NCBI GenBank assembly: GCA_902614655.1 | Contig: CACMLX010000003.1 | Span: 19,554-83,553, forward strand | DNA: 64,000 nt | Reading direction: 5' to 3' | DNA from: an uncultured Pelagibacteraceae bacterium | GTDB lineage: Bacteria; Pseudomonadota; Alphaproteobacteria; Pelagibacterales; AG-422-B15 | Shown here: positions 35,618 to 56,395 of the stretch, in pieces | How the letters are laid out: each line of letters begins with the position of its first letter | How positions within the stretch are numbered: position 1 is the first letter of the stretch | Position numbers and translations under genes: made by a program | The notes under the pieces: generated by a model | Told to the model about the DNA's origin: nothing | What the model saw: only the letters and a program-made list of their open reading frames with translations | Databases searched by the model: none

Positions 35618-36679
35618 ATGGATCATAATTTAAAAAAAATCCGAGACTCTGTCATTGAGCACACTTTAAAGTTGGACAACGACCAACTTGCACTTTTATT
35701 ATTAATTCAACTTTCTCGTCATCAAAATCTATTTATTCACGAACCGTCAGATTGGGAAGATAGTCCAACAGGTTGGATTACAAAAGATCAAAGACTGCAA
35801 GATGAAGTAATTGCTATTTTGTCTTTTATAATACTTTTTTCATTTACGAATGCATATCATGATGAAAATTTATTTAAAGATCATAGAGCCGAAATTTTAG
35901 CAATGCATCCAGAAGACTTTCTTAATAATTCAATTTATCAGTCACCGTTTGGTCAATTTATTGGCAAAAAAATTACCATTGGTTCACTTTCAACTTATTT
36001 CAATATTCCAAAAGAAAGTATGAGAAGATATTTAAATTCAGTTTTAGAGAGTAATTTAATTAAAAAGGATTCAAAATATGGATATCTTGTGAATTTTGAA
36101 GCATATCAAGCATATATATTCACCAATTCATTAAGTAATATTTATAAATCAGTCATGCGCTCATTAAATGATTTTATAGTGAATTTAGAAGATTATTTTA
36201 AAATTAATTTTAATTTAAAACCTCTATCTTCAATCAATACAAAAAAATTTTCTCAGCCTAAATGGAACAGAGTACGATTACATCTATATCACTTCTGGGT
36301 AAGAATTCTTACTTTAGAAGGAAGCGATCAATCACTTTTACCAGCTGATCGCATAATACTCTCAGCTGCAGTATATTTTAAAAACAGACACGGTATATTA
36401 AAATATAATACCATTGAAGATCTATATGAAAGCGGACATCTTCTTCCAACAAATCTATCTTCAATTTCTGAGGCAGCAAAAATGCCACGTGAAACTGTAA
36501 GACGATCTAGTAAGAAATTAATTGAATTGAAACATCTTGAAAAAAAAGGGAGAAATATTTACCGAGTTAATTACCCAAAACTCAATGGAGAGGTGGATAT
36601 TTTTTTAAAATTTAAAGAATTAACTTTTACAGAAATGATGAACTTTTACTTTAATATTTACGAGGATTTAACGAGTTAA
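35618..36679 (+). CDS. Hypothetical protein with two winged-helix-like segments (possible regulator)
   Basis: 353 aa. Two HTH-like stretches: LSTYFNIPKESMRRYLNSVLESNLIKK and ISEAAKMPRETVRRSSKKLIELKHLEKKG. I recognise no family. The 3' end overlaps the 3' end of the TolC-like gene by 4 nt (convergent). Confidence 0.35.
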   Translation: MDHNLKKIRDSVIEHTLKLDNDQLALLLLIQLSRHQNLFIHEPSDWEDSPTGWITKDQRLQDEVIAILSFIILFSFTNAYHDENLFKDHRAEILAMHPEDFLNNSIYQSPFGQFIGKKITIGSLSTYFNIPKESMRRYLNSVLESNLIKKDSKYGYLVNFEAYQAYIFTNSLSNIYKSVMRSLNDFIVNLEDYFKINFNLKPLSSINTKKFSQPKWNRVRLHLYHFWVRILTLEGSDQSLLPADRIILSAAVYFKNRHGILKYNTIEDLYESGHLLPTNLSSISEAAKMPRETVRRSSKKLIELKHLEKKGRNIYRVNYPKLNGEVDIFLKFKELTFTEMMNFYFNIYEDLTS

Positions 36680-39498
36680 ATTGAGCACATCAGAATGACT
36701 TCTTCATTACAAGTTAGTTCAGCGTCAACAATTGAGCTATTCTCTGAACTTAATTTAGTATCAAGTTCTTCTAACATCGATTTAGCCTCAACCATAGGAA
36801 CTGGGCCGATTACTACTGAGAAGTCGTTTTTATCAAATTTTTCCACATTTATATCATATTTAAGGAAACGAGTATCAAAGCCCATTAAATCGTATATGTA
36901 ATTCATTAAGCTATTCGCCGAGTTCCCTCGTTTATATGACCCGATCTTAATATAAGCATACTCTGCATTTGATGAATCCTCTGAAATATTGTCATCTGAT
37001 GCAGTTGTTGCCTCGCTTGCTTGAGCGCTGAAAGAGCTAGTTTCAGCATCAACACTTGTATCCATAAGTTCATTTAAGTTTGCTAAAGCCTCTTCAGTCT
37101 CTTTAGCTAACTTTTCTTCAAGCTCTTGTTGAGCTTTTTTTTCTTCTAATTCTTTTTGTTTATTTTCTTCAATTAATTGAGCCAGTTCTTCTTTTGCATC
37201 AGTTGCTTCTGTTAATAGTTTTTCATTATCCATGAGTAATTGTTCATTATTAGCGATCAGCTGTTCGTTTTCTTGAATTAATTTTTTTGTTGGTAAAATA
37301 TTATTTTCTTCGACTGTATTAGTAGTAGTATCATTTTTAATTAAAGCTTTCTCTTCAGTATTTGCTTCAGCACCCTCACTAAAGATTTGATTATTGAATT
37401 CTAATGAACTCTGTTCTTCAGTTGATTGGTCAAAAGTACCGTAAAGCAATTGATCAACAGAATCCAAGAGATTGTTAAGATCGTCGGTAGATACATTACT
37501 AAATTCATATTCTGCTTCAATTGGCTCTGGTGGCGTTTCTTCAACTTCCATTCCTTCATCAACCTCGGTAGTTTCGATCGTAGTTTCTACAACTTGCTCT
37601 ATAGGTAAAGTTTCATTTTCATTACTTAAGCTTGACATACGTGCAAGCTCTTCTCTTGCTTTTTGACTTTCATTTGCAAGGAATGTTTCTTCATCAACAA
37701 ATTTCAAAATGAATTGGTCTTCGACTGAAACTAAAGCATTAGCAACAGAGATTTTTAGTTTAATACCTGATACACCTTCTGGAGGATTGCCGACTATAGA
37801 CAAATCAGAAGTAAGGAATGCAAGCCATCGAGGTAGATCACTTCCATCTTGTTGCGTAACCGAATATCTTAATTTGCCTGGACCAGTGATATTAAATGTA
37901 TCTTTAGATATATTAAATTTATTACTTGTTTGCGTTGTATTAATCGGGTCTGTGATCACTAGAAGTTGTGGGTTTTGATTATTAAGAGGAATATTAACTG
38001 CTGCTTGATAATTTACTCCCCACTCTGCTAAATTAGCTTTTATTTCAGTACTTAAATCCTCGATAGATAGGTTTTGATGATCAGTTGGTAAAATGTCTTT
38101 ACCAATTGATGCGTAAATCTGGCCAATACTGTGCTGCATTTCAGAGAAGGCTAAATCTTTTCTTAACTCTGCAACAAGAAGACTTGCCTCTTCTCGAATA
38201 ACCTCAAGTTCACCAAATCTTGAGACTTTTTGTGCATTTTGAACCTGCTTACTTATTCTTTGAGCTACATCTAAATACCTTTGTGCCGTATCATATTCTT
38301 CAATGGCTAGGTCATAATTAATGTTTGATAAATGGACTTGTGAAAGCACCGTCATTGCTATTGCTAAGTGTCTCTCGTTTATCAATTCTTGATTTGCTTT
38401 AGATGCTTTCCTTGATGCCCCTATTGAAAATATATCAAAAAGATTACCTCCAATCGACGCGCCGTATTCGGTAGTATCTTGGTTCATTAAAAATTGATTA
38501 TTCGTATATCCATAGGCTACATTAAACTTTAGACTCGGTATAAGGGCCAGCATAGCCGCACGAGTATCTTTACTAGAAATTCTTTTTTGATATCGACTTT
38601 CCATTAATTCTGGTCTTGAAATAAGTGCTATTTCTTCCATGGATTGAATATCCATATTTAAATTAGTTAAAAATGTATCATTTTTTGCAAGTGTAAACTT
38701 TTGGCTTGGTAACAAGCCCATCAAAGAAGCTAATTCATTTTTTGAATTAATTAATGCTCTTTGTTGTGTTTGCAATGTTCTTTGAACATCAAGCAATTCT
38801 TTTTGATAAAGTAAAGAGTCCATAGGAGCTGAAATTAAAAGTTCTTCAATATATTGAGAGTCTGATAAAGCATCTTCGACTTTTTCCAACAACGGTCTTA
38901 ACTTTCGAAGAAGCTTCTCAGATGCTTGTGCTTTCCAGTAAGAGCGAATTATGTCCCGTGTGATATTCTGTGTAGCTTTTCTCTCGAGCTCTTTCGCAAT
39001 TAAAAAACGATCAGCTTGTTGACCTGCTCTAATATAAGAAAGACCGAAGTCTAATGCATTCCATGTGAATTCAATATTTCTTGTACTTTGAGACCTGTCT
39101 CTTGATATTGTATATGACTGAGTGCCATCTAAGTCTGGAGCAGGTTCAGAGTCGCTTGTTACACCAACACTAGTCGAGGGTTGAATTTCCATAAATTTTG
39201 AGTAGCCAGCACTAAGAGCTATATCAGGCAGCATATCGAATTTTTGTAAGTCTCTTTGTCTTTGTGAGAGCGCAGACTCCATCACGCTTATCCTTAAGTC
39301 ACGATTATTTCTAACTGCAATTGCAATTGCAGTATGCAAATCAATATTTTGTAAAGATGTGTCAACTTCAAGATTTAACATATCTTCCGCAATTGAAAAA
39401 TTAAGAGACTCTTCATCAATTACTTTTGGAGATCTCGCACAAGCAACGAGCGCCAAGCATATGAAAAATAAAAATAATTTTTTTATTGAATTGACCAT
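36676..39498 (-). CDS. TolC/OEP-family outer-membrane lipoprotein with a C-terminal cadherin-like (Cadg) domain, acidic coiled coil and SPOR-like domain
   Basis: 940 aa. Lipobox LALVAC (Cys20). OEP-type repeats occupy about aa 45-475 (HTAIAIAVRNNRDLR...). Cadg-like LPRWLAFLTSDLSIVGNPPEG lies at aa 555-575 (nt about 37699-37971). A Glu/Gln-rich coiled coil spans aa 600-845. The SPOR-like C-terminus YIKIGSYKRGNSANSL...FSVVIGPVPMVEAKSMLEEL maps to nt about 36754-36963. Confidence 0.8.
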   Translation of the reverse strand: MVNSIKKLFLFFICLALVACARSPKVIDEESLNFSIAEDMLNLEVDTSLQNIDLHTAIAIAVRNNRDLRISVMESALSQRQRDLQKFDMLPDIALSAGYSKFMEIQPSTSVGVTSDSEPAPDLDGTQSYTISRDRSQSTRNIEFTWNALDFGLSYIRAGQQADRFLIAKELERKATQNITRDIIRSYWKAQASEKLLRKLRPLLEKVEDALSDSQYIEELLISAPMDSLLYQKELLDVQRTLQTQQRALINSKNELASLMGLLPSQKFTLAKNDTFLTNLNMDIQSMEEIALISRPELMESRYQKRISSKDTRAAMLALIPSLKFNVAYGYTNNQFLMNQDTTEYGASIGGNLFDIFSIGASRKASKANQELINERHLAIAMTVLSQVHLSNINYDLAIEEYDTAQRYLDVAQRISKQVQNAQKVSRFGELEVIREEASLLVAELRKDLAFSEMQHSIGQIYASIGKDILPTDHQNLSIEDLSTEIKANLAEWGVNYQAAVNIPLNNQNPQLLVITDPINTTQTSNKFNISKDTFNITGPGKLRYSVTQQDGSDLPRWLAFLTSDLSIVGNPPEGVSGIKLKISVANALVSVEDQFILKFVDEETFLANESQKAREELARMSSLSNENETLPIEQVVETTIETTEVDEGMEVEETPPEPIEAEYEFSNVSTDDLNNLLDSVDQLLYGTFDQSTEEQSSLEFNNQIFSEGAEANTEEKALIKNDTTTNTVEENNILPTKKLIQENEQLIANNEQLLMDNEKLLTEATDAKEELAQLIEENKQKELEEKKAQQELEEKLAKETEEALANLNELMDTSVDAETSSFSAQASEATTASDDNISEDSSNAEYAYIKIGSYKRGNSANSLMNYIYDLMGFDTRFLKYDINVEKFDKNDFSVVIGPVPMVEAKSMLEELDTKLSSENSSIVDAELTCNEEVILMCSI

Positions 39499-39705
39499 GT
39501 ATTTGTTTTTATAAAAACCAAGTTACTGTCATAACGGGTAACTTTATCCCGCGCAAGTAATACCAAACTTTAGTAATTTCAGAGTACACATAACCGCCCA
39601 TTTTGGGTTTTTTCTGCGATCTTGCTACATTTAGCAGCATTACTGCTGTATATAGAAAAGGTATATTTATCAATAAATTACTAAATTTTATTTATAAAAA
39701 ATATC

Positions 39706-42700
39706 ATGACCAAAAAACTAATTCAGGCACTCGAACCCCGTATGATGCTCGATGGAGCTGCTGTTGCTACTGCAATTGATACGATCGATGATTTAGCAAA
39801 TTTGAATAAGACCGATTTAGATAAAAAAACAAAAGAAAATAATTTTAAAACCGATCAAGATACAAAACTTCCATTTGTAAATCGTGAGAGTATTAATCAA
39901 AATACACGAACAAAACAATTCGTGTTTATTGACAGCGCAGTGGATGATATTGAAGTCTTAATTGATAGTTTTGATTACAACACTGAAGTACACATCATAC
40001 AAAGTGAACAAGACGGGTTTGCTGAAATTGAAAATATTTTATCTAACGAATCTAATATTGATGCGTTGCACATCATCGGCCACGGTAGTGTTGGGCAAAT
40101 AGCATTTGGAACAGCTGTTTTAAACATTGATACACTTGATACTTACAGAGATACGTTAAAAACTATTGGTTTAAGTTTAACTGAGCAAGGTGATATCTTG
40201 TTTTATGGTTGTAACGTTGCGGCTGATCAAAATGGAGAAGTTTTCATTAAACAACTTGCAGATATAACCCAAGCGGATATTGCTGCATCTGATGATATTA
40301 CTGGTCATGGAGGTGATTGGGATTTAGAGAAACATGTCGGCATTATTGAAACTCAAAATGTAAGCGTTATAAATTATAATCACTCTCTTAGTAATGATGT
40401 TACTGCTATTCAAAACGCTTTTGAAAAACATGATGCAACCAATTTAAAAGCAGGTGGTGGAAATTTCTCAGGTAATAAAAATGGACAACAGGATCCAGAC
40501 GGTCAAAAAAGGTGGCTCATCACACAAGAAAAAGCAAATGTGACTACAGGTAGCACACTGAACTTTGATGTTGGTGTGACCGCAAACAGTTGGGATCCAG
40601 ATACAGATGGACCGGTAAACGTTTATATGGTCTATCTGAATGACGAAATCAATCGACGAGGATCGAGTGACCGAGGTATAGTTGATTTTACTTATGAAAT
40701 TTTAGGTGTTTTCACGACACCTGATAATACTAGATACATGAACGGTTATGTGACTTTAGGAAATAACGCTTACCCTGATAGTGGTGCTACGAAACTTGGT
40801 AAAAGGGATTTTGAGTACTCTGGTGGTGCACCTGGAAGTTTAACGTCAGGCAGTGATGGGTGGCAGGTCTCGAATGGTAATAAAAGAATAACACTTTCAG
40901 CTGATAACGGTGAAAAAGGTGACTTTATTCGTGTGGTCACAAAAGCCGCAACAACAAATAACGAGCCCGTAGGTAATAATGATGCCGGTTATATCAATGA
41001 AGACGCCGAGTTGAATGTTGGTAATGATGATGTCGCAAATGATGCTACACCTGATGCATCGGGTGAACATACTGGTGATGTTTTATTAAATGATACTGAT
41101 CTTGATAACGACCCACTGACTGTTAAGTCCATTAATGGAGGATCTCTTGGATCGCCAGTTGATGGCACTTATGGTACATTAACGCTCTATTCAACTGGTC
41201 GTTACACATACTCAGCTAATAAAGATGCTGCAGACACTCTGGATTCTGGGGATACAGTCACTGATACCTTTACTTATACCGTTACTGATCAAACTGATGA
41301 TGCTACCGCAACAATCACTATTACTATTGCAGGTTTAAATGATCCAATAACAGCTATAAACGATACAGATACTGTCCTTGAGGATGGAAGCATTTCAAGA
41401 AACACTTCTAGTACGTTTGAATTAGATCACGACGATACTGATCCTGATGGTGATGATACATCTGGTAACTTTACCATCTCAGCCATACGATTAGGGCGAT
41501 TGACAGGAGCACTAGGCGCATCAAAAACTGTAGGAGCCGAATTTACAACAACATACGGTACTGTAACCATTAATGCTGATGGGTCATACTCTTATGCAGC
41601 TGATCAAGCCGCAACAGACAATTTAGCAGCTGGCGCTACGCAGACTGACTATTTTGTTTACACAGTTACAGACGGCAATGGAAGTTCAGACTCAGCTGAA
41701 TTAGCAATTACCATTACAGGTGTAGGACCCGGAGCTGTAAATGATACTGACACCGTTGCTGAAAATGGTTCCCTCAATCGTAATGCAGCTGCCGGAGTGC
41801 TCGATAATGATAATGATGATGCAACAAAAGACTCAGAAAATTTAATTGTCACAGAGATCTCCTCCAACAGCACAGGTAATAGTGGCAATGCTACTCAAGG
41901 CGTACTTGGAACCTATGGTACCTTAACGGTTGCAGCTGATGGAAGTTACACATACACCGCAAATACTGCAGCAGCAGAGGCTTTAGCCGCAGGTGATAAC
42001 AGTCAAACTGATGTATTCACTTATAAAATGAAAGATGATAATGGCGTTAATGAAGCTCAAGCAACTTTGACTATTACAATACAAGGTCAAGATGATGATC
42101 CCGTTGCATCAGCAGACACAGGTGCAGCTAACGAAGATGGCCCGCAAGTTTCAGTCAATGCTGCAAGCGGTGTTTTAGCCAATGATACTGATGTAGATGC
42201 TGGAGAAACGCTAGAAGTTTCTGCTGTCGGAGGTAATGGATCAGCCGTTGGACAAGATGTTACAGGATCTCTCGGTACCTTGAATTTAGATGCAGATGGA
42301 TCTTATACATATATTGCTGACCAAGCTGGTGCAGATGCAATCACTGCAGGACAAACTGCAACAGATACATTTAATTACACCTTAACCGATGGCGAAGGAA
42401 CAACAAGCACTGTTAACTTAGTCATTACAGTTACTGGTAAAGGACCTGAAGGTGTTGCTGACACGGCATCTGTTGCTGAAAATGCAACGGTAGCTAAGAA
42501 TAATGCTTCCACAGATGGAGTACTTTCTAATGACGATGATAACGCTTCATTTGACCAAGAAAGTCTTGCTGTAACTGCAATTGTTGGAGCATCATCTGGA
42601 ACGGTTGGAGGTGAAACTACTGGTACTCACGGTACACTTACAATGAACGAAAATGGTACTTATTCTTACGAAGCAACCAACGATGCACTTGATGATGGAG

Positions 42701-45700
42701 AAACTGTTAATGATGTATTTACGTATACAGTTAAAGACGATGACAACAAAAACTCTAGCACCGCAACATTAACCATTGCTGTAACTGGAGCAAATGACCC
42801 AATTACTGCGACCGCTGACACGGATAATGTAAATGCAGGATCTACAATTACTCGAAGTGAAAGTGATGATGAAGAACTTGATCACGACGATACTGACCCT
42901 GATGGTGATGATATATCAGGTAGCTTTACTATTACTAATATCAGACATGGTTCTGATGATTATAACCCTGGTCAAGAAATTACGACATCAAAAGGTAGAT
43001 TAACAGTCAATGCCAATGGTTCTTATACTTACGTCGCTGATCAAAGCGGTTCAACAGGCTTATCAAATGGTGCTCAAGTAAATGATGTCTTTACATATAC
43101 AGTAAGAGATCACAGTGGAGGTGATACAGATACTGCGACACTTACAATTACAATTACAGGTTCAAATAACACCCCTCCAGTAGCGGATGACGTAGCAGTG
43201 GATGGTAATCCTGCAACAGGATACATAACAGAAGACCAAACATTAACAGTTGGTGATGGCTCAACCGGGGTTTCGGGAACCGATGGTAATAAAAATAATG
43301 AAAGTGGAGATAATACAGGGGACGTTTTAAATAATGATACAGATGTAGATGGACACACACTTACAGTTTCAGCTATTTCAGGAGGATCTGTCGGTGGCGC
43401 TGCGACAGGAACTTACGGAACGTTAACAATTCAAAGCACCGGTAATTACACCTACAATGCAAACAACGCAAACTCGATAGCAAAAGATGCAACAGCAACT
43501 GATGTATTTACTTATACAGTCAGTGATGGCAATGGTGGAACGGATACTGCGACCATAACCATCACTATTTTAGGAGTAAATGATGCTCCAAGCGCAAGCA
43601 ATGATATAAATGCAGTTGATGAAGATGCTACAGCAACAAAAAATGCTGGAGCAGGAGTACTTTCAAACGATAGTGATGTTGACACGGGTTCAAGTATGAC
43701 GGTGACAGGAATTACTGGAGCATCAGCAGGTTCAGTTGGTGGATCAACTGATGGCACTTATGGTACTCTGACCCTCAATTCTGATGGCAGTTATTCGTAT
43801 ACTGCTGATAAAGCAGCTGCTGATGCACTGGCACATAACGCAACGGCAAATGATGTATTCACTTATACAGTCACAGATAATGAGGGGGCTACTGCTACGG
43901 CAACTCTGACTATCACGGTAACCGGTAAGGGACCTGTTGGTTCAGCAGATACAGCTACAGCAACTGAAAGTCAGACATTAACAGTCAATGAGGCAGGTGG
44001 AGTATTAACAAATGACTCTGGTGGAGATACGGAAAGTCTCGCCGTTACAAATATTGAGTCAGGTGGTACGGGTAATACAGGCACTGCTGGTCAAGGTGTT
44101 TTAGGGACGTATGGTACTTTGACTATTGCAGCTGATGGAAGTTACACATACACACCAAACACAGCCGCTGCAGAAGCATTAGATGGTGGTGATACTGTTA
44201 CCGAAGTATTTACTTATACTGTAAAGGATGATGATGACAAAAACTCATCTACCGCAACGCTTACATTTACAATAAATGGAGCTAACGATGCAATCGTTGC
44301 TGTTGATGATACAGATAGCGTTAACGAGGATGCAACGGTTACAAGATTAATCAGTGACGACCAAGAACTCGATCACGATGATACTGATGTTGATGGTGAT
44401 GATACAAGCGGAAACTTTACAATTACTGATATCAGAACTGGTCCAAAGGATGGAACTGGAACTGACGGTACAGTTGGTGTTGCACTTACGGGTGAATTTG
44501 GAACTCTTACTGTTAATGCAGATGGTTCCTATACCTACGTTGCGGATCAAGATAAATCAGATCAATTGGTAACAAATCAAACAGGAACAGATATATTTAC
44601 ATACACAGTAAGTGATGGCACTGAAACGTCAACCGGACAACTAACGTTCACTGTGACAGGTATCAATGATAATGATCCAGTTGCTGTAGATGATACAGAC
44701 ACAGTCAAACGTGATGCAACAGTTTCTCGTGCTACTGGCACAGATTTAGCTATTAATGCCGATGATACAGATGCAGATGGTGAAACCTTAACTATTTCTG
44801 AAGTGCGTGTAGGCCAAACTGAGGGTGGAGGTAAAGGAGGTGCCGCTTCTGTTGGAAATGCTCTTGTGGGTACCTTCGGTACTTTGACTTTAAATGCTGA
44901 TGGTAGTTATACGTATGTTGCGGATCAGGACGCAGCCAACTCACTTAAACGAGGAGATAGTGCAGTAGATCATTTCAATTATACAGTTACTGATGGAACC
45001 AGGACAGATATTGGTGTTATTTCAATAACTGTTGAGGGTATCAGTGATCCACCTATTCCAATAGATGATACATTAGAAATTGATGCAGGGGCGCAAACTG
45101 AGAAAGATGCAACGCAAGGCGTGTTAATTAATGATACGGATCCTGATGGTGATACCTTATCAGTTAGTTCGTTCAGAACTGGGAAAGAGGGCAAAGGCAA
45201 CACAGGTACAAGCGGCACAATTGGAGAACCTCTATCTGGAATTTATGGTGATTTAACCATGAATTCTGATGGTAGTTACACGTATAAAGCAAATAATGCT
45301 GGGCCACTTAATCCTGGTGAAACAGCTACAGAGTTTTTTACATATCAAGCTTCTGATGGGGAGTCTTCTGTTGAAGCACAAATTGCAATTACTGTAACAG
45401 GTAAGAATGACCCTCCTGAAGTTGTGTACCCCTTAGATCTCTCACCAATATTTACTGGTCAAAAGATTAACATCAAATACAGACAAATATTTGATGATCC
45501 AGACACAGGTATATTTGATATTTCTGAATATAAAATAATTGATACAGAAACTGACGAAGAAACAAGTCTACCCGATGGTTTAAGACTAAAACAAAACAAG
45601 TTGACGGGAAGTCTTAGTGAACCTGGATTATATACTATTACTATCAGAGCAATAGATGGAGCTGGACTATCTACAGATTATACTTTCACAATTGATGTCC

Positions 45701-46791
45701 GAACCGCTCCTGGTTATACGGCCGAAAAAGAGACTTCTGATGAACAGAGACCTGCTTTTGATCCAGTTGTCGTCAAACCAAAGAAAGAGTTTTTGGCGGC
45801 CATCAATGATGTAATTAATGATGGAGCATCACTACCTGGCGATGATGGTTTCAATCTTGATACAGTTTCAATTGCTGACACCGCGTCTCTATCAAAACCG
45901 TTAAAATTTAATGGTGGTTTGAGATTGATGGATGCTGTTGTGAATGAAGTTTCGGGGGACTCAGAGTCAGATTTAAAAGTTGGTTTGAAATTAAATGATG
46001 ATAATCAAAAAAATGTGGAGTTATATTCAGGTCAGCTCTCTAATGGTGAAGCTTTACCAGAATGGATCAGAGTCAATCCTGAAACAGGAGAAACAACAGC
46101 CGACATGCCTGAAGGTGTTGAAGCAGTTGAGGTTCAGTTGGTAGCACTTGATAAGGATGGAAATACAAGAGATATAAATATTGTACTAGACAAAGCAAAA
46201 ATTAAAGGAGACCAAGACTTCGCACGTGGAGCCATTGATCAGGCAAGGGTAGTTGTTGATAATGATGCAAATGTAAACCTGATTAGGGAGAACAACAATT
46301 CATCTAATAACGCAGCAAATAATAATTTGAATGCTCAAACAGATTTTGAAGGCACTATGAAGCTAAGCAGTCTTCAAATGGATGCAGGTCAATTTACAGT
46401 TGATGTAATTGACGATAAACAGTCAGATGTGAAAATGTATAAAGCAGAACTCAAAGGTGGCGGCGCACTTCCAGACTGGATTACAATTGATCCTGAAACA
46501 GGAAAAATTGCAGCTGACCCCTCAAAAGGTAGAACAGGCTCAGCAGCTCCAGCATTCTTAACTGAAAGCCTTCAAGTTCTTGAATTAAAAATTATTGCTG
46601 AAGACGAAGATGGAAAAGAAAGAGTAATTGAAGTTGAGATTGATCTTAATGAAGTAACTGAAACTGAGACAGATGGTGAAAATTCTGCAACAAACGATGA
46701 AATCTCTTTCATTCCACTTGATGAACAATTAAAGCTTCATGCTAAAGCAGCAGATAGCTATGGCGAAAAGATTGTATCTCTAGTAAGTTAA
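39706..46791 (+). CDS. Giant (2361 aa) surface/secreted repeat protein: N-terminal LEPR-DGAA motif, DUF4347, unknown beta-rich module, 12 VCBS/cadherin-like repeats and C-terminal Cadg-like domains
   Basis: N-terminus MTKKLIQALEPRMMLDGAAVA has no Sec-type hydrophobic core. DUF4347 pattern FVFIDSAV...ALHIIGHGSVGQIAFG...ILFYGCNVAA...GGDWDLE covers aa 70-210. There are twelve repeats of about 100-130 aa ending ...FTYTVxDxxG...ATLTITVTGxNDxP. C-terminal LPDGLRL/LPEWIRVNPETGET/LPDWITIDPETGKI motifs are present. I found no GGxGxD RTX nonapeptides. Confidence 0.9.
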   Translation: MTKKLIQALEPRMMLDGAAVATAIDTIDDLANLNKTDLDKKTKENNFKTDQDTKLPFVNRESINQNTRTKQFVFIDSAVDDIEVLIDSFDYNTEVHIIQSEQDGFAEIENILSNESNIDALHIIGHGSVGQIAFGTAVLNIDTLDTYRDTLKTIGLSLTEQGDILFYGCNVAADQNGEVFIKQLADITQADIAASDDITGHGGDWDLEKHVGIIETQNVSVINYNHSLSNDVTAIQNAFEKHDATNLKAGGGNFSGNKNGQQDPDGQKRWLITQEKANVTTGSTLNFDVGVTANSWDPDTDGPVNVYMVYLNDEINRRGSSDRGIVDFTYEILGVFTTPDNTRYMNGYVTLGNNAYPDSGATKLGKRDFEYSGGAPGSLTSGSDGWQVSNGNKRITLSADNGEKGDFIRVVTKAATTNNEPVGNNDAGYINEDAELNVGNDDVANDATPDASGEHTGDVLLNDTDLDNDPLTVKSINGGSLGSPVDGTYGTLTLYSTGRYTYSANKDAADTLDSGDTVTDTFTYTVTDQTDDATATITITIAGLNDPITAINDTDTVLEDGSISRNTSSTFELDHDDTDPDGDDTSGNFTISAIRLGRLTGALGASKTVGAEFTTTYGTVTINADGSYSYAADQAATDNLAAGATQTDYFVYTVTDGNGSSDSAELAITITGVGPGAVNDTDTVAENGSLNRNAAAGVLDNDNDDATKDSENLIVTEISSNSTGNSGNATQGVLGTYGTLTVAADGSYTYTANTAAAEALAAGDNSQTDVFTYKMKDDNGVNEAQATLTITIQGQDDDPVASADTGAANEDGPQVSVNAASGVLANDTDVDAGETLEVSAVGGNGSAVGQDVTGSLGTLNLDADGSYTYIADQAGADAITAGQTATDTFNYTLTDGEGTTSTVNLVITVTGKGPEGVADTASVAENATVAKNNASTDGVLSNDDDNASFDQESLAVTAIVGASSGTVGGETTGTHGTLTMNENGTYSYEATNDALDDGETVNDVFTYTVKDDDNKNSSTATLTIAVTGANDPITATADTDNVNAGSTITRSESDDEELDHDDTDPDGDDISGSFTITNIRHGSDDYNPGQEITTSKGRLTVNANGSYTYVADQSGSTGLSNGAQVNDVFTYTVRDHSGGDTDTATLTITITGSNNTPPVADDVAVDGNPATGYITEDQTLTVGDGSTGVSGTDGNKNNESGDNTGDVLNNDTDVDGHTLTVSAISGGSVGGAATGTYGTLTIQSTGNYTYNANNANSIAKDATATDVFTYTVSDGNGGTDTATITITILGVNDAPSASNDINAVDEDATATKNAGAGVLSNDSDVDTGSSMTVTGITGASAGSVGGSTDGTYGTLTLNSDGSYSYTADKAAADALAHNATANDVFTYTVTDNEGATATATLTITVTGKGPVGSADTATATESQTLTVNEAGGVLTNDSGGDTESLAVTNIESGGTGNTGTAGQGVLGTYGTLTIAADGSYTYTPNTAAAEALDGGDTVTEVFTYTVKDDDDKNSSTATLTFTINGANDAIVAVDDTDSVNEDATVTRLISDDQELDHDDTDVDGDDTSGNFTITDIRTGPKDGTGTDGTVGVALTGEFGTLTVNADGSYTYVADQDKSDQLVTNQTGTDIFTYTVSDGTETSTGQLTFTVTGINDNDPVAVDDTDTVKRDATVSRATGTDLAINADDTDADGETLTISEVRVGQTEGGGKGGAASVGNALVGTFGTLTLNADGSYTYVADQDAANSLKRGDSAVDHFNYTVTDGTRTDIGVISITVEGISDPPIPIDDTLEIDAGAQTEKDATQGVLINDTDPDGDTLSVSSFRTGKEGKGNTGTSGTIGEPLSGIYGDLTMNSDGSYTYKANNAGPLNPGETATEFFTYQASDGESSVEAQIAITVTGKNDPPEVVYPLDLSPIFTGQKINIKYRQIFDDPDTGIFDISEYKIIDTETDEETSLPDGLRLKQNKLTGSLSEPGLYTITIRAIDGAGLSTDYTFTIDVRTAPGYTAEKETSDEQRPAFDPVVVKPKKEFLAAINDVINDGASLPGDDGFNLDTVSIADTASLSKPLKFNGGLRLMDAVVNEVSGDSESDLKVGLKLNDDNQKNVELYSGQLSNGEALPEWIRVNPETGETTADMPEGVEAVEVQLVALDKDGNTRDINIVLDKAKIKGDQDFARGAIDQARVVVDNDANVNLIRENNNSSNNAANNNLNAQTDFEGTMKLSSLQMDAGQFTVDVIDDKQSDVKMYKAELKGGGALPDWITIDPETGKIAADPSKGRTGSAAPAFLTESLQVLELKIIAEDEDGKERVIEVEIDLNEVTETETDGENSATNDEISFIPLDEQLKLHAKAADSYGEKIVSLVS
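40960..45420 (+). repeat. Array of 12 VCBS/cadherin-like coding repeats with higher-order duplication
   Basis: Repeat classes recur in order: R1 resembles R7, R2 resembles R6 and R10 (all carry ELDHDDTD(P/V)DGDD), and R3 resembles R9. Exact DNA identity occurs, e.g. the 26-mer gcagctgatggaagttacacatacac at 41933-41958 and 44128-44153. Confidence 0.85.
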
Positions 46792-46802
46792 TAATTACCT
46801 TT

Positions 46803-47522
46803 ATGAACAAAATTGTAACATTTGCGGTAATAGCGTGCTGCATATTATTTCCTTATAATTTGTCAGCAGAAGAATATTCCACCCGTGTCTTAGTAACTGC
46901 AACCCAAGAGGCAACACTCTCAAGTGAACTTGCTGCAAAAGTTGACTCAATTCCAATTGATGAAGGATCTGAATTTAAAGAGTCTGATATTTTAATTAAG
47001 TTTGACTGTTCATTTTTTGAAGAACAAAGAAAAGTTGTTGAAGCACAATTAGAGAGTGCGAGAGTAACTCTAAAGAGCAATCAAGACTTAGCATTAATGA
47101 GATCCATTGGTGAGTATGAAGTTCAGTTATCAGAAATCGATGTAAAGCGTGCAGAAGCTGAATTTCAGATTGCTAAACTCAATACAGATCGATGCATAAT
47201 TAAAGCCCCTTACGATGGCAAAGTATCCAAAGTGTTTGTAAATGAGTTTGAGAGTATTGAAAGGCAGCAGCCATTAGTTGAAATCATTGGTTCAGGCATT
47301 CTTGAGGCAAAATTGATTGTTTCAAGCAAGTGGTTGGCTTGGATCGATGAGGGATATCCCATGAAAATCAGCATTGATGAAAACGGTCTAACATATAGTG
47401 CCAAAATTTATACTATTGGCGTTGATATTGATCCTGTTAGTCAAACAATCGACATAACTGCAAAATTTGATGAAAATTATGATACATTACTGCCAGGTAT
47501 GAGTGGGACAGCAACGTTTTGA
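46803..47522 (+). CDS. Short periplasmic membrane-fusion (HlyD/RND-adaptor-like) protein
   Basis: 239 aa. Signal peptide, lipoyl-like hairpin halves (ATLSSELAAKVDSIPIDEGSEFKESDILIKFD ... IIKAPYDGKVSKVFVNEFESIERQQPLVEI) separated by a coiled coil. Lies 11 nt after the giant gene. Confidence 0.8.
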   Translation: MNKIVTFAVIACCILFPYNLSAEEYSTRVLVTATQEATLSSELAAKVDSIPIDEGSEFKESDILIKFDCSFFEEQRKVVEAQLESARVTLKSNQDLALMRSIGEYEVQLSEIDVKRAEAEFQIAKLNTDRCIIKAPYDGKVSKVFVNEFESIERQQPLVEIIGSGILEAKLIVSSKWLAWIDEGYPMKISIDENGLTYSAKIYTIGVDIDPVSQTIDITAKFDENYDTLLPGMSGTATF

Positions 47523-48856
47523 ATGACAATACTTCAATAAAAATAGCAAGATTAATTACTCTTGAGAAAAAATTTCGGACTGCAGAAAACATATCCGAAC
47601 TCGGATTCGTTTGTGCAAATGAGTTAAGAAGTGTTGTGGATTACAATTTTTTATTTTTTCTTACTAAATCTGCAACAGGTCGACAGAAAGTCCAAACAAT
47701 TTCAGATATTTCAGTTGTTGATAGAACTGCGCCGACAGTAAATTTTGTAGAAAGATTAATAAATAAAAAGAAGGTTGAAACGGGATTCTTTTCAGAAGTT
47801 TCAATTAGTGATTTAAGAGAAGATGATACAAATTTAGACTTACCTGAAAATTTTCCAAATGAGTTAATGGTTGTTCCATTAATTTCAAGAACAAAGGGTG
47901 ATTTAGGTTCTCTAGTTGTTGTACGATCTGTCAAAGTTTCAAATACAGAAAAAGAGCTTCTGCAACACATTGCTGAAACATTCAGTCATGCATTGGATTT
48001 ATTTTTATCTCAAGGATCGATTTTATCCTTTTTTGGTAGAATTTTTTCAGGTTGGCTAAAGTGGTTAATATTATCAGCAATCGCACTTGCAATGTTTATA
48101 CCAATTAATATATCCGCAGTAGCTCCAGTTGAGGTTATTGCTAAAAATCCATCAGTAGTTACATCACCAGTTAATGGTGTAGTGAAAAAAGTATTAGTTA
48201 ACACAAATGAAGCCGTTGATGTTGGCATGGAGCTCATTAAATTAGATGATCTCAATTTTAAATCTCAATACGAAATAAACTTACAAGAATTAGAAGTCGC
48301 TGAAGCAGAATTACTCAGGGCTAAACAATCCTCATTTACAAACGATGAGGCAAAAGCAAAGCTCGTTGAGCTATCAACTGAAGTTGCATTGAAGAAAAAG
48401 CAAGTTGCTTATGCCGAGGAACAATTAAAATATTCTGTCATAAAAGCGGAGGTTTCGGGAGTTGCTGTTGTTGAAGATTTTATTGATTGGCAAGGTCGTC
48501 CTGTAAATATAGGTGAAAAGATATTAACAATTGCCAATTCAAATGATATTGAGTTCTTAATCTACCTACCGACAAAAGACTCACTTTTTATTGAAAAATC
48601 AGCAAGAGTGAAGGTGTTTTTGGACAGCAGCCCACTCAACTCAATTGAAGGAAAAATAATAAGAACATCTTACAAACCTGAATTAACAGCTGAAAATATT
48701 CTTGCTTATAAAATACACGCTAGCCTCGAGGATAATATTGAGCCGCCGCGTATTGGATTACGAGGATCAGCAAAAATTTACGGAGATCGGACATCTCTTT
48801 TTTACTATATCTTCAGAGTTCCAATTAATATCAGCAGACAGTTTATAGGAATATAA
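47519..48856 (+). CDS. Membrane-fusion (HlyD-family) protein with an N-terminal cytoplasmic GAF-like domain
   Basis: 445 aa. About 165 aa cytoplasmic with a GAF-like core LMVVPLISRTKGDLGSLVVVRSVKVSNTEKELLQHIAETFSHAL. One TM (WLKWLILSAIALAMFIPI), then lipoyl (VTSPVNGVVKKVLVNTNEAVDVGMELIKLDD), coiled coil and beta-barrel. The TTG start overlaps the upstream TGA. Confidence 0.75.
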   Translation: MNDNTSIKIARLITLEKKFRTAENISELGFVCANELRSVVDYNFLFFLTKSATGRQKVQTISDISVVDRTAPTVNFVERLINKKKVETGFFSEVSISDLREDDTNLDLPENFPNELMVVPLISRTKGDLGSLVVVRSVKVSNTEKELLQHIAETFSHALDLFLSQGSILSFFGRIFSGWLKWLILSAIALAMFIPINISAVAPVEVIAKNPSVVTSPVNGVVKKVLVNTNEAVDVGMELIKLDDLNFKSQYEINLQELEVAEAELLRAKQSSFTNDEAKAKLVELSTEVALKKKQVAYAEEQLKYSVIKAEVSGVAVVEDFIDWQGRPVNIGEKILTIANSNDIEFLIYLPTKDSLFIEKSARVKVFLDSSPLNSIEGKIIRTSYKPELTAENILAYKIHASLEDNIEPPRIGLRGSAKIYGDRTSLFYYIFRVPINISRQFIGI

Positions 48857-50965
48857 ATGATTGTACCGTCTATCCGACAAGATCTGAAACTCAGTGAGGG
48901 ACCAAAGAAAGAGGACGGTTCAGCGTCGTGGCTTCTTTATGACTCACTAAGAAATAAATACTTTTCAATAAACAAAAAAGCATTTGATCTTCTTAAAAAT
49001 TGGTCAAGTGGAATTGAGACAACAGAATTTATTGAAAAAATTAAAAAAAGCAATCTGTCTATTACACAAGAAGAAATTGAAGAATTTATCAATTTTCTAA
49101 ATCTCAATAATTTAAGTATTAAAAAAACAGGTGATGAAGTTAAATCTTTAGTTGTTCAAAAAGAGAAACTTAATAAGCATTGGCTGTTAAAAATTATTCA
49201 TAATTATTTGTTCTTTAAAATCCCATTATTCAAACCAGGAAATGGTCTTGAAAACAGTTTACCTTTTGCATTGTTTCTTGGATCGCAAACCAGCAGACTC
49301 ATAATCTATACTCTGGGGATCATTGGTATTTTTTTAACAATCCAAAACTATGAAACATTTTTAACAACATTTTCTTATTTCTTTAATGTTAATGGATTGA
49401 TTTTGTTTGGTATAACGATTGTTTTTGTAAAGGCCTTGCACGAACTTGGGCACGCATATGTTGCCACTTATTATAAATGCAAAGTTTCTTCAATTGGTCT
49501 TGCAATGCTGGTTTTTTTCCCCTTCTTGTACACAGATACAACCGATGCTTATAAATTAACTGATCATAGAAAACGCTTACTGATTAATTTTGCAGGCATG
49601 CTGACTGAATTGCATCTTGCCCTGCTTGCTACATTTGTTTGGGCTGTAAGCCCTGAAGGTGTTATAAAAAGTGCCTCATTTTTTATTGCAACTTCAAGCT
49701 GGATATCATCACTTCTTATTAATATTAGTCCGTTTATGAGATTTGACGGATACTATGTGCTCTCAGATTTTCTTAAAGCGGAAAATCTTCAACCGCGCTC
49801 ATTTGCTCTAGGTCGATGGCAGATTAGAGAATGGATCTTTGGATTCAAATTCCAACCACCAGAACAACTCATGAGTCAAAGACGGTGGACTTTTATCATT
49901 TACGCATGGATGACATGGATATATCGCTTCTTCATATTTATTGGAATTGCCTTATTGGTCTATTATTTAACATTTAAAATTCTTGGCATCATTCTGTTCA
50001 TTATTGAGATTGTCTGGTTCATTTTACTACCAATTTGGAGAGAAATTAAACAGTGGTGGGGACTCAGAAGGTACATGCGTTTTAATTGGACTTCTTTGAG
50101 ATCAATTTTCATTTTTTCAGTTTTTTTGGCTGCAATGTTAGTACCATGGCGAAGTTCACTCAGTCTTCCTGCAGTGATTGATCGAGGTGAAGTGGTCGAT
50201 ATATATCCTACAGAAGCCTCTGAGATAAAAGAGATTTTTGTTATCTCAGATCAACAAGTCGAAAAGGGTGACTTATTAATCACAATGATGAGTCCGTCTT
50301 TATCAAATAAAGTTGATAAAGCAATTGAGCGCGTAAAGATGATACAACTAAAACTAGATCGTCGAATTGGATCAGAGGTTGATATGAGTAACCTCATGGT
50401 ATTAGAAAACCAATTAAAAGTAGAATTTGAAATTCTTAAAAGTCTTAAAGAAGAAAATAAAAATCTATCAATTTATGCACCAATGAGTGGGGTAATAAAA
50501 GACCTTAAGTATTTAAATAATGGACAATGGGTGAATATAAAAGAAAAATTATTTTCTATTGTTCAATTCAATGACACTAAAGTTGTTGCATTTATAAGTG
50601 AGAATGACTTGGACAAACTTGAAGGTAATACAAGCGGTTATTTTGTACCAAAAAATAATGAGTTTGATGAATCAGAAGTTGTCTTGGTTTCACAAAATAA
50701 TACATCGACAGAAGAACTTCCTTACTTATCATTAGTATCTACTTTTGGTGGATCAATTGCATCACGCGAAGTTAAGAGAGATGGAAAAGTTGTTTATCGA
50801 CCAGAAGAAGCTTTATACCAATTGAATTTTTCTACAAGTACAGAAGTTGAGACTGTTCAATGGCAAACAGCAGGTAAAGTAAAAATTCAAACTGAAAACT
50901 ATAATATTTTTCAAAATCTATTTAATTTGGTTTCATCAACATTAATTAGAGAAAGTGGATTTTAG
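48857..50965 (+). CDS. Site-2 protease (peptidase M50) fused to a C-terminal HlyD-like periplasmic domain, with an N-terminal PqqD/RRE-like cytoplasmic domain
   Basis: 702 aa. HELGH at nt 49439-49453 and second S2P motif NISPFMRFDG at 49721-49750, both in TM helices. The C-terminal approx 260 aa have lipoyl-like (IYPTEASEIKEIFVISDQQVEKGDLLITM / IYAPMSGVIKDL) and coiled-coil segments. N-terminal WLLYDSLRNKYFSINKKAFDLLKNW...TQEEIEEFINFLNLNNL resembles PqqD/RRE. ATG immediately follows the upstream TAA. Confidence 0.8.
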   Translation: MIVPSIRQDLKLSEGPKKEDGSASWLLYDSLRNKYFSINKKAFDLLKNWSSGIETTEFIEKIKKSNLSITQEEIEEFINFLNLNNLSIKKTGDEVKSLVVQKEKLNKHWLLKIIHNYLFFKIPLFKPGNGLENSLPFALFLGSQTSRLIIYTLGIIGIFLTIQNYETFLTTFSYFFNVNGLILFGITIVFVKALHELGHAYVATYYKCKVSSIGLAMLVFFPFLYTDTTDAYKLTDHRKRLLINFAGMLTELHLALLATFVWAVSPEGVIKSASFFIATSSWISSLLINISPFMRFDGYYVLSDFLKAENLQPRSFALGRWQIREWIFGFKFQPPEQLMSQRRWTFIIYAWMTWIYRFFIFIGIALLVYYLTFKILGIILFIIEIVWFILLPIWREIKQWWGLRRYMRFNWTSLRSIFIFSVFLAAMLVPWRSSLSLPAVIDRGEVVDIYPTEASEIKEIFVISDQQVEKGDLLITMMSPSLSNKVDKAIERVKMIQLKLDRRIGSEVDMSNLMVLENQLKVEFEILKSLKEENKNLSIYAPMSGVIKDLKYLNNGQWVNIKEKLFSIVQFNDTKVVAFISENDLDKLEGNTSGYFVPKNNEFDESEVVLVSQNNTSTEELPYLSLVSTFGGSIASREVKRDGKVVYRPEEALYQLNFSTSTEVETVQWQTAGKVKIQTENYNIFQNLFNLVSSTLIRESGF

Positions 50966-51039
50966 TGGTGCCCCTAGCTGGTTACGCTCCAGCGGCTGAT
51001 CATTACCAATGACCTGCTTTACTATTAAGCGATAGGGGC
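50966..51039 (-). tRNA. tRNA-Thr(GGU)-like gene with a non-canonical elbow (atypical D- and T-loops), encoded CCA
   Basis: Minus strand: GCCCCTA TC GCTT AATAGTA AAGC A GGTCA TTGGTAA TGATC AGCC GCTGG AGCGTAA CCAGC TAGGGGC ACCA. All four stems pair fully (7/4/5/5 bp, one G-U). U8, A14, A21, U33 and G53-C61 are present. The T-loop is AGCGTAA instead of TTCRANY and the D-loop has one G instead of GG. The anticodon is at 51005-51007. Confidence 0.6.
51020..51039. repeat. 20-nt direct repeat copy 1 (5' end of the tRNA-like gene)
   Basis: tactattaagcgataggggc is identical to 56376-56395. Confidence 0.9.
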
Positions 51040-51214: not shown

Positions 51215-51270
51215 CAAAACATATTTAATGCTACTACCTCAAATACTCATTCAGGAAAGTGGATTTTAGT
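51215..51270 (+). pseudogene. Degenerate relic of the 3' end of an M50-HlyD gene (duplicate of 50912-50966)
   Basis: Exact 16-mer gaaagtggattttagt at 50951-50966 and 51255-51270. Upstream, caaaacatatttaat (51215-51229) matches caaaatctatttaat (50912-50926). In the homologous frame the relic reads ...LIQESGF* against ...LIRESGF* in the intact gene. Confidence 0.6.
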
Positions 51271-51886
51271 TTATTTCAAGGCCGCCCTCAGTTTTGAGAA
51301 ACTCAGCAACATTTTCTATACCTTTATTATTCTTCATTTCACAAAAAATATAAGGCATGCCTGATCGGGCAGTTTCAACATCTAATTTCATTTGATCCAA
51401 ATCAACATTTACGTGATTTGCTAAATCGGTTTTATTGATGATTAGTAAATCAGATTTTCTTATTGCTGGCCCACCTTTGCGAGGAATATCACCTCCCATT
51501 CCAACATCAATTACATAGATTGATAAATCTACTAACTCTGGACTAAACGTTGCGGCCAAATTATCTCCACCTGACTCAATTAATAGCAATTGTAAATCAG
51601 GAAATTTTTGTTTCATTTCTTCTACAGCTAAGAGGTTGATCGAAGCATCCTCCCGAATAGCGGTATGAGGGCAACCACCTGTTTCAACGCCTTTAATTCT
51701 CTCAATTGGTAAAACTTGAGCTCTCATTAAATACTCGGCATCTTCTATTGTATAAATATCATTTGATATAACTGCCATTGAAATATTTTTAGATAAATTT
51801 TTGCACAAAGCCTCAGTAAGACTTGTTTTACCTGCACCAACTGGGCCGCCAATACCAATCTTTAAAGGACCTCGAAAATTATTCAC
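51266..51886 (-). CDS. ureG: Urease accessory GTPase UreG
   Basis: 206 aa. P-loop [20 protein letters not shown] and ESGGDNL motifs. Confidence 0.97.
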
Positions 51887-52542
51887 GTGACGTAAATTCT
51901 AGATTTAAGATTTTCGTGTTTCATACTGTAAATATCCGCATAAAACGTAGAACTGCGTAAATCGTCTAAGTTATAGTCTCTCATCGTATTATGAAAACTT
52001 TTCATCATTCCAAGAAATGAAACCATACAATCTTGACCATCTTTCTGACTTAAAGGTATATGTTTAACGCACATATTAATTAAGTTTGAGATGAATGATT
52101 GAATATAAAAATCAACCAAATCATCAAAGGCAATATGAAATTTAATACCTGCTTGAGCAATACAGACTGGGAAAGTGGTCTCATTATCTATTGTATAGCC
52201 CCAACTTTCTGACATAATTTTTCTGAATGCATCTCCCATTTTAAGTGTTTCAAGTTGACGTTCCTTGGATGCGCAGTTTGCAAGTACTAAATCATTTATA
52301 TCAATTCCGCCATAGACAGCCTTGATAAAGATATACTCATTTCTGCATGTTCCTTCATAGAGAATACTCTTGATAAATTCTAATACGTCATTTTTATTTT
52401 TGATAAGCTTATCATCAATTATACCCTCAAGACCATGCGAATATGCGTATGAACCAATAGGAAATGAAGACGAAAACCAAAGATGTAAAATTTGATGAGA
52501 TTTTAAATCTAATAAGTTTTTACTTTTAATGTTTGTGACCAT
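51883..52542 (-). CDS. ureF: Urease accessory protein UreF
   Basis: Track ORF reaches 52590, but ATG 52542 (MVTNIKS...) limits the overlap with ureE to 17 nt. The [21 protein letters not shown] motif is typical of UreF. Confidence 0.85.
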
Positions 52543-52969: not shown

Positions 52970-52972
52970 AAG

Positions 52973-54984: not shown

Positions 54985-54991
54985 ATAATTC

Positions 54992-56384: not shown

Positions 56385-56395
56385 GCGATAGGGGC
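56376..56395. repeat. 20-nt direct repeat copy 2 (isolated copy of the tRNA-like 5' end)
   Basis: tactattaagcgataggggc. Flanks on both sides are unrelated to those of copy 1. Confidence 0.9.

Follow-up and report, generated by a model that had tools for sequence, protein, structure and literature searches.

A conserved gene module pairing an M50 protease-adaptor fusion and a TolC-like channel with LEPR-XLL giant proteins: a candidate envelope-spanning export system in SAR11 and other bacteria

Introduction

Among the closest described counterparts of the system reported here are the LapA/LapBCE-LapG/LapD and SiiE/SiiCDF systems, in which a giant repeat adhesin is likewise encoded beside a TolC-like outer-membrane factor (OMF) and HlyD-type adaptors. 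In known tripartite systems, such as type I secretion systems (T1SS), resistance-nodulation-division (RND) pumps, and MacAB operons, the inner-membrane transporter is normally encoded with the adaptor; to our knowledge, all characterized systems built on such an adaptor and a TolC-type channel have an energized inner-membrane transporter of the ATP-binding cassette (ABC), RND, or major facilitator superfamily (MFS) type. We analyzed a 64,000-nt stretch of DNA from an uncultured Pelagibacteraceae bacterium (contig CACMLX010000003.1, positions 19,554 to 83,553; hereafter the window, in which all coordinates below are numbered). It contains a five-gene locus (36676-50965) in which a TolC-family protein, a giant repeat protein, and three adaptor-type proteins are encoded together, and the only polytopic inner-membrane component is an M50 metalloprotease fused to one of the adaptors. 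Here we describe the composition, conservation, and distribution of this module and weigh what it may do.

Results

The locus consists of a gene for a TolC-family lipoprotein on the minus strand and, divergent from it, a tightly packed string of four genes on the plus strand. The outer-membrane protein (OMP; 36676-39498, 940 aa) is followed in order of position by the giant LEPR-XLL/DUF4347 repeat protein that is the presumed substrate (39706-46791, 2361 aa), a short periplasmic adaptor of the membrane fusion protein (MFP) type, MFP1 (46803-47522, 239 aa), a second adaptor, MFP2 (47519-48856, 445 aa, TTG start), and a 702-aa fusion (48857-50965) of a domain resembling a RiPP recognition element (RRE), an M50 site-2 protease (S2P), and an MFP domain, hereafter M50-MFP. 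Along the string, successive genes lie 11 nt apart, overlap by 4 nt, and abut directly (0 nt). Our open reading frame (ORF) map agreed to the base with a preliminary description of this DNA.

The fusion protein is widespread: 2443 clusters at 50% identity were found at E≤1e-30 among 1.84 billion representative proteins, and the best 150 clusters all contained proteins of about 700 aa that aligned end to end. Homologs in single-cell genomes of Pelagibacteraceae were 97-98% identical, and those of other Pelagibacterales 45-75%, which places the window in SAR11. For neighborhood analysis we collected the best 80 loci per search with 10-kb flanks, which gave about 240 loci overall from Alpha-, Beta-, Gamma-, and Zetaproteobacteria and Nitrospirota. 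The string giant-MFP1-MFP2-M50-MFP was kept in all 85 SAR11-type loci (45-98% identity), with the OMP gene divergent upstream of it wherever the locus extends that far. An alignment (A2) of 20 distant members of the fusion family yielded 596 confirmed loci, and the best 80, which were sampled, came from Hyphomicrobium, Rhizobium, Methylobacterium, Sphingomonas, Nitrospira, Pseudomonas, Achromobacter, Nitrosomonas, Desulfonema, Zetaproteobacteria, and Micavibrio; most of these had the order OMP-MFP1-MFP2-M50-MFP on one strand, adjoining a giant ORF. Of the 42 diverse loci that extend at least 6 kb to either side of the module, 40 encode a giant and 29 have the OMP gene next to the module.

The reverse search, seeded with the DUF4347-containing N-terminus of giants from outside SAR11, gave 597 confirmed loci, and 78 new ones were examined. 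The M50 fusion was encoded in 46 of them and part of the module in 4 more; of the 28 others, 24 break off within the giant, so that a downstream module, as in SAR11, could lie beyond their end. Gene order varied while the set of components stayed constant. Celerinatantimonas and Colwellia have the giant gene between those for MFP1 and MFP2, and the full order OMP-MFP1-giant-MFP2-M50-MFP was seen in loci L197 and L233. The gene arrangement is not due to chance. The preliminary description had named as its own weak point the chance that such modules are normally unlinked to giants and OMPs; linkage proved systematic, and, because it holds in both directions and the component set is constant across varied gene orders, we argue strongly that these genes form a functional unit. 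In full-text searches of the literature we found no description of an OMP/MFP/M50/giant system, and neither Pfam nor NCBIfam has a model for the system as such, their models being for the LEPR-XLL motif and for generic domains.

No ABC partner was encountered in or near the module. Neither Pfam nor NCBIfam detected ABC_tran or any other nucleotide-binding domain (NBD) family in any of the five proteins, so these models revealed no cryptic NBD, and the C39, ABC_membrane, and ABC_tran domains that characterize peptidase-containing ABC transporters (PCATs) were likewise absent from all five. Among the window ORFs scanned for domains (most of those of at least 120 aa; several short ORFs between 4 and 27 kb and all ORFs below 120 aa lay outside the scan), the only NBDs belonged to the ATPase of a Pot-like importer (30861-31946) and to an ABC-2 exporter pair (58228-59912). 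This agrees with the earlier observations that no ABC ATPase stands beside the locus and that the nearest ABC systems are these two, in separate operons. No ABC protein of at least 480 aa was encoded within 10 kb in any of the approximately 240 loci, so a transporter encoded with its adaptor, as expected of a T1SS, was not found locally. The 42 diverse loci gave the same result, and the NBDs present in 5 of them were importer-sized and far off. LapG- or LapD-type domains were found neither in the five operon genes nor in the flanking genes scanned (some small window ORFs lay outside that scan). We regard ABC-independence of the module as a candidate property, not a finding.

Three potential partners were considered and dismissed: a 254-260-aa ATPase in loci L068-L085, which sits with folD and yggT; the ABC-2 pair downstream of the module in the closest relatives, which is not conserved in other clades; and the MFS-MFP-OEP genes in two Pseudomonas loci, which are a separate pump.

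The fusion protein combines three parts. Its central, polytopic membrane domain (aa 128-430, 49238-50146) matches Peptidase_M50 (PF02163, 38 bits against a cutoff of 27.2), contains transmembrane (TM) helices, and carries both motifs of the family, HELGH (aa 195-199, 49439-49453) and NxxPxxxxDG (aa 289-298, 49721-49750), which the preliminary description had rightly reported to be intact. Residues H195, E196, H199, N289, P292, D297, and G298 were invariant in 46 sequences sharing 31-73% identity, and this invariance of all M50 catalytic residues makes it very probable that the protease is active. The periplasmic MFP domain (aa 431-702, 50147-50962) has an alpha-hairpin at residues 480-535, matches HlyD_D23/HlyD_3 within residues 431-603, and in Foldseek searches resembled MacA (3fpp, E 1.6e-12) as well as MacAB-TolC, EmrA, AcrA, and MexA. 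The AlphaFold2 (AF2) model of the whole fusion, with a mean predicted local distance difference test score (pLDDT) of 86.3, shows an N-terminal domain, a helical membrane core, and a C-terminal adaptor. For the N-terminal, cytoplasmic domain (aa 1-90, 48857-49126), AF2 predicts the RRE/PqqD-like succession of three strands and three helices (strands at 11-14, 25-29, and 34-38; helices at 40-47, 55-64, and 71-83), and the NCBIfam model PqqD_rel_WgkC matches it with E 0.0023 (17.9 bits against a cutoff of 110). The daptide intramembrane metalloprotease family NF041824 aligns to residues 23-391 (E 6e-32, 111 bits against a cutoff of 300).

The giant protein begins with a LEPR-XLL motif (LEPRxxFDGA), IQALEPRMMLDGAAVATAI (aa 6-24, 39721-39777), and passes the family model for this motif over the same residues (NF012209, 20 bits against a cutoff of 17). 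Residues L9, E10, R12, and D16 were invariant across 46 aligned giants from several phyla, and the pattern LExR..FD[GA]A was present in every module-adjacent giant whose N-terminus is in view, including those of Kosakonia and of E. coli (LESRQLFDGA). We consider the motif a candidate leader that the RRE-M50 protein is predicted to recognize. It is followed by an Ala-rich stretch and by a low-complexity linker (aa 25-70, 39778-39915) that is predicted to be disordered (AF2 pLDDT 30-37 over residues 1-66) and varies in length among aligned giants. A Sec or Tat signal was rejected, since there is no hydrophobic N-terminal segment.

The linker leads into a DUF4347 domain (aa 71-218, 39916-40359; Pfam 167 bits), for which a model of the giant's N-terminus built with database-fragment homologs gave an alpha/beta fold of the caspase or cysteine protease domain (CPD) type, with a core pLDDT above 90. 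Its best Foldseek match was Tce1 (9qpe_G, E 1.6e-5), with caspases next, and a sequence profile searched against the Protein Data Bank (PDB) returned the same entry (E 4e-5). Residues H126 and C169 were invariant in one alignment (A5), and Cys169 (40210-40212) is the sole cysteine of the window giant. Tce1 is a type VI secretion system (T6SS) effector of P. aeruginosa; both it and Tce2 are described as putative Cys proteases that share fold and His/Cys dyad with the TcdB autoprocessing domain/CPD, and a Cys mutant of Tce2 loses toxicity (PMC13323088). From sequence and model, we describe the DUF4347 domain of the giant as a putative cysteine-protease domain of the CPD/caspase-like type. The giants of SAR11 (2361 aa, the window protein), an E. 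coli plasmid (4459 aa), and Kosakonia (2347 aa) each have just one cysteine, always in the YGC of DUF4347, and several Nitrospira copies have Asp or Glu in place of the DUF4347 His.

The body of the giant (40993-46701) consists of 12 VCBS/bacterial-cadherin (Cadherin_4)/Big_9 units and Ig-like domains (He_PIG, RibLong) by Pfam and NCBIfam; it is acidic and Thr/Asp/Gly-rich, and the product as a whole is rich in Thr, Asp, Gly, and Ala. As had been stated before, nonapeptides of the repeats-in-toxin (RTX) family are absent, with no GGxGxD motif in 2361 aa; related giants nearly all have none or one (five in one locus, L115). The last 361 aa contain neither RTX repeats nor an NCBIfam T1SS C-terminal target domain. 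At the extreme C-terminus (aa 2333-2361, ISFIPLDEQLKLHAKAADSYGEKIVSLVS, 46702-46788) is a motif, F-x-[SP]-L-x-[DE]-Q-[LI] followed after 8-10 residues by [DN]-Y-G, defined in SAR11 giants by regular expression and profile. The expression matched 18 of 19 unique SAR11 C-termini as compared to 2.2% of internal 60-aa windows, and the 82 matches of the profile, which include Colwellia and Celerinatantimonas giants, all lie at most 12 aa from the end. It is a candidate C-terminal signal or anchor. The earlier view of the giant as a substrate without a Sec signal thus stands in that respect, but the protein is not signal-less, having its LEPR-XLL N-terminus, CPD-like domain, and C-terminal motif; LEPR-XLL, the DUF4347 fold and its cysteine, and the SAR11 C-terminal motif had gone unnoticed, as had the invariance of the M50 residues.

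Module-adjacent giants of SAR11 span 1684 to at least 9101 aa. In Micavibrio (L129, 249-6043), the module is preceded by two proteins of about 965 aa that start LEKRLMLD and show no clear similarity to DUF4347, and there may be substrates smaller than giants. The giant gene has a G+C content of 40-42% (40000-46000), and the rest of the window about 35%. In the giant and MFP2 of locus L046 (CP159818.1, the complete genome of the isolate Pelagibacter sp. Uisw_114), the reading frames appear split into several ORFs, which could reflect decay of the system or sequencing errors. In Pseudomonas loci (L146, 12117-16471), genes for a GNAT acetyltransferase, a PMT_2-type glycosyltransferase, and a sulfotransferase stand between module and giant, which hints at modification of the giant.

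HlyD-type adaptor domains (HlyD_3/HlyD_D23) were thus found in three proteins of the locus, namely the fusion, MFP1, and MFP2. MFP1 matches HlyD_3 (60 bits) and the RND adaptor family TIGR01730, RND_mfp (101.8 bits against a cutoff of 94.9); its N-terminus is hydrophobic, as in a signal peptide or with a lipobox, and it was seen in 78 of 85 SAR11 loci and in 66 of the 69 diverse loci with enough upstream sequence. MFP2 starts with a GAF-like domain in the cytoplasm (aa 1-172, 47519-48034), continues with a single TM helix (aa 175-201, 48041-48121), and ends in a periplasmic adaptor, with HlyD_3 in residues 197-405 and a weak match to type_I_hlyD (TIGR01843).

The OMP is a TolC-family OMF of the sort used by T1SS (Pfam OEP, 106 bits in two stretches; NodT/TolC weakly in NCBIfam), and its N-terminus, MVNSIKKLFLFFICLALVAC, has the lipobox LVAC of a lipoprotein. 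The channel domain occupies aa 1-490 (38029-39498, minus strand), with the OEP matches within aa 53-466. In SAR11 the OMP has in addition a C-terminal extension of 450 residues (36679-38028), made up of an Ig-like He_PIG domain (aa 512-593, 37720-37965; 24.3 bits against a Pfam cutoff of 24), an acidic coiled-coil linker, and a weakly supported FtsN/SPOR-like end (about aa 845-940, 36679-36966; TIGR02223 ftsN, E 3.5e-4, below cutoff) with the pattern YAYIKIGSY...VVIGPV. Module OMPs of other taxa are mostly 490-620 aa and lack it. The extension may serve to anchor the channel to peptidoglycan.

The module is also mobile. It was found on 55 plasmids, among them Citrobacter plasmids and an 80-kb Kosakonia plasmid with the order giant, TolC, MFP, MFP, M50-MFP. 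The 69-kb E. coli IncFIA/FIB plasmid NZ_CP081687.1 carries these five genes between the insertion sequences (IS) ISKpn26 and IS1B, and no ABC transporter is annotated anywhere on this plasmid in the PLSDB gene table, which is incomplete. When 5426 complete E. coli genomes were searched, 24 proved to carry the four-gene module (at least 99% identity), in most cases on plasmids. The Kosakonia plasmid carries three tandem genes annotated as tail fiber protein after M50-MFP (L244, 22077-24184), and the E. coli cassette plasmid also encodes a diguanylate cyclase (L246, 8006-9388).

The 207-nt intergenic region between the divergent OMP and giant genes (39499-39705) contained no Rfam family or riboswitch at E≤1, and the scan for promoters and terminators was uninformative, with fewer promoter-like sites than in shuffled sequence and about as many terminator-like sites. 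On the other side of the OMP gene, a plus-strand ORF of 353 aa (35618-36679) with weak winged-helix matches overlaps the end of that gene convergently by 4 nt; homologs directly follow M50-MFP in loci L038 and L041, and L150 has a weaker match of 171 aa about 1.2 kb past M50-MFP. This ORF may be a linked regulator.

Three nucleotides after the M50-MFP stop codon is a tRNA-like gene (50969-51039, minus strand), which scores 50.9 bits with the Rfam tRNA model and was not detected by ARAGORN. It has the anticodon loop TTGGTAA (GGT, perhaps Thr), a non-canonical T-loop, and a 3' end of CCA; its 49-nt 3' part recurs unchanged at this position in 19 relatives and lies about 2-3 kb downstream in two more. 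Between it and the ABC-2 exporter, the window holds a urease cluster and a gamma-glutamyltranspeptidase gene (51266-58208), including a plus-strand match to the 5' ureB small RNA (RF02514, 102 bits, 54241-54526) antisense within the region of the urease alpha-subunit gene. No more than 0.85 kb separates the module from the ABC-2 pair behind it in the closest relatives, and inserts of 2.7-6 kb occupy this site in other single-cell genomes. The region beside the tRNA-like gene is a variable island.

Discussion

Our analysis identifies a set of five genes that recurs across several bacterial phyla and on plasmids. We hold with moderate confidence that the five genes encode a T1SS-like machine that spans the envelope and is dedicated to exporting or tethering LEPR-XLL giants, in which the RRE-M50 protein would recognize and probably cleave the leader, and that has no dedicated ABC partner encoded close by. 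As in tripartite pumps, the three adaptor domains would build a periplasmic duct onto the OMF, and the polytopic M50 domain would occupy the position that the ABC transmembrane domain has in T1SS and PCAT systems. RRE domains bind the leaders of ribosomally synthesized and post-translationally modified peptides (RiPPs), and the cytoplasmic RRE-like domain may bind the N-terminal LEPR leader in a similar way, after which the M50 site would cut in or near the Ala-rich stretch behind it. Cleavage could either license export, as in PCATs, or release an N-terminally tethered giant after C-terminus-first export, as LapG does for LapA; the presence of conserved elements at both termini of the giant makes a LapA-like scheme attractive by analogy. 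Candidate partners in engaging the substrate are its C-terminal motif and, on MFP2, the GAF-like domain, and the CPD-like DUF4347 domain may act as a plug, an autoprocessing site, or both. As to energy, one may speculate that the force for export comes from the cadherin/VCBS repeats as Ca2+ makes them fold outside the cell, or else from the proton-motive force.

A stronger form of this proposal, possible in our judgment and put forward tentatively, is that the module represents an undescribed class of secretion system with no ABC ATPase at all, in which an RRE-like/S2P/adaptor fusion, together with a TolC-like channel and the other two adaptors, exports and tethers LEPR-XLL giants, the ABC and C39 functions are replaced by recognition of the leader and its intramembrane cleavage, and extracellular Ca2+-dependent folding of the repeats or the proton-motive force drives translocation.

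Several observations weigh against the main proposal. We know of no transport activity of M50 proteases, and a source of energy for export was not found in the module. We infer export of the giant by the module from linkage only. The labels given to two domains in the preliminary description hold in part: the RRE assignment is tentative, as the predicted AF2 topology and the sub-threshold match to the PqqD family speak for it while a PDB sequence-profile search returned nothing significant for this domain; the GAF assignment is weak, with GAF models matching 7 of 23 members of the MFP2 family (best E 2e-5), the N-terminal 170 residues of the window protein unassigned (GAF E 0.03), and the corresponding PDB profile search giving nothing significant. 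A regular-expression search of the three adaptors found no canonical match to the RLS hairpin-tip motif. Outside SAR11, the C-terminal motif is clear in no more than a few marine Gammaproteobacteria, and Nitrospira giants (L112, L171, L184, L217, and others) end differently, in a TM helix, PAWRHFDPLPV, and a basic tail. Finally, a Vibrio LEPR-XLL giant with C-terminal RTX/serralysin domains has been reported in passing in one paper, which suggests that some members would use classical T1SS signals.

The last point leads to the main rival explanation, a classical T1SS whose HlyB/LapB-type ABC transporter is encoded at an unlinked site, with the module supplying the adaptors, the OMF, and N-terminal processing or retention, and with the giant leaving C-terminus first. 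Besides the RTX domains of the Vibrio giant and the lack of a known transport function in M50 proteases, this explanation would account for the HlyD-like build of MFP2 (a cytoplasmic domain, one TM helix, and an adaptor, with its weak match to TIGR01843) and for conservation of the extreme C-terminal motif. We nevertheless consider it rather unlikely. Transporter and adaptor are usually encoded together, yet no ABC exporter was found within 10 kb in approximately 240 loci from several phyla; the unit moves as an IS-flanked five-gene cassette on an E. coli plasmid with no ABC transporter annotated there; and the final 361 aa of the giant offer neither of the C-terminal features, RTX repeats or target domain, by which a T1SS substrate might be known.

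A second explanation is that the module is no translocon and instead serves proteolytic release or quality control, the giant crossing the inner membrane by other means and being trimmed or released by the M50 protease and the CPD-like domain, much as LapG and LapD act on LapA. The two conserved protease-type elements (the M50 motifs and the His/Cys pair of DUF4347), the Ala-rich stretch behind the N-terminal motif, and the GAF-like sensor domain on MFP2 are all consistent with such a device. However, three adaptor domains and a dedicated OMF are the marks of a duct across the envelope, a Sec-type signal is missing from the giant, and no other translocon is linked to it, all of which make this explanation improbable. 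That the adjacency is incidental and the OMP, MFP, and M50 proteins form an efflux pump or a RiPP-like small-peptide exporter unrelated to the giant, as the resemblance of the RRE-M50 part to RiPP leader peptidases and the RND-type score of MFP1 might suggest, can be set aside as very improbable given that linkage holds both ways across phyla and gene orders, even to giants inside the module (L197, L233), and that the module has no conserved companion gene for a pump of the RND, MFS, or ABC type or for a small precursor.

If an M50 metalloprotease does hold the transporter position in so widespread a module, the view of how very large proteins are exported across the envelope would change. SAR11 bacteria are the most abundant marine heterotrophs, and in them the gene for the giant may take up more than 27 kb of a genome of 1.2-1.4 Mb; other bacteria with the module are nitrifiers (Nitrospira, Nitrosomonas), Alphaproteobacteria associated with plants, and Pseudomonas. 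Our proposal, if true, would give the LEPR-XLL motif and the DUF4347 domain of giants, both orphan signatures, a function and would explain the route by which these giants, which are likely to be relevant to interactions with phages, grazers, and particles, reach the cell surface. The natural cassettes of E. coli make the system open to ordinary genetics.

Compared with the LapA and SiiE systems, the module shares conserved elements at both ends of the substrate, of which the N-terminal one plausibly serves retention and proteolytic release. It differs from them in lacking a linked ABC transporter, RTX repeats, and LapG/LapD genes in the operon, in having three adaptor-type proteins rather than one, and in that its polytopic inner-membrane protein is an M50 metalloprotease; the N-terminal element of the giant, LEPR-XLL plus a CPD-like domain, is also distinct from the retention module of LapA. 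With the PCATs that work with a CvaA-type adaptor and TolC (the exporters of colicin V and other bacteriocins), it would share the logic of a leader cut by a peptidase fused to the inner-membrane component. In the module, however, that peptidase is an intramembrane M50 enzyme with an RRE-like domain rather than a cytoplasmic C39 cysteine peptidase, there is no NBD, and the substrates are thousands of residues long, as compared to tens for PCATs. The RRE-associated M50 leader peptidases of RiPP pathways (NF041824) are homologous to the fusion over its N-terminal domain and HExxH membrane core, but the fusion, scoring well below the family cutoff, is not a member; it has an MFP domain and is teamed with an OMF and, in place of a short precursor, a giant.

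MacAB-TolC and EmrAB-TolC have the adaptor fold seen in the C-terminus of the fusion (Foldseek E of about 1e-12) and, like the module, a dedicated OMF. Whereas their inner-membrane partners are ABC or MFS transporters, the module has none and its adaptor is fused to a protease. The CPDs of MARTX and TcdA/TcdB and the effectors Tce1 and Tce2 complete the comparison: the DUF4347 domain of the giant matches Tce1 by both profile and fold and keeps its His and Cys, but, unlike in the CPD toxins and T6SS cargo, it is placed here at the N-terminus of an adhesin-like giant that is linked to an MFP/OMF module.

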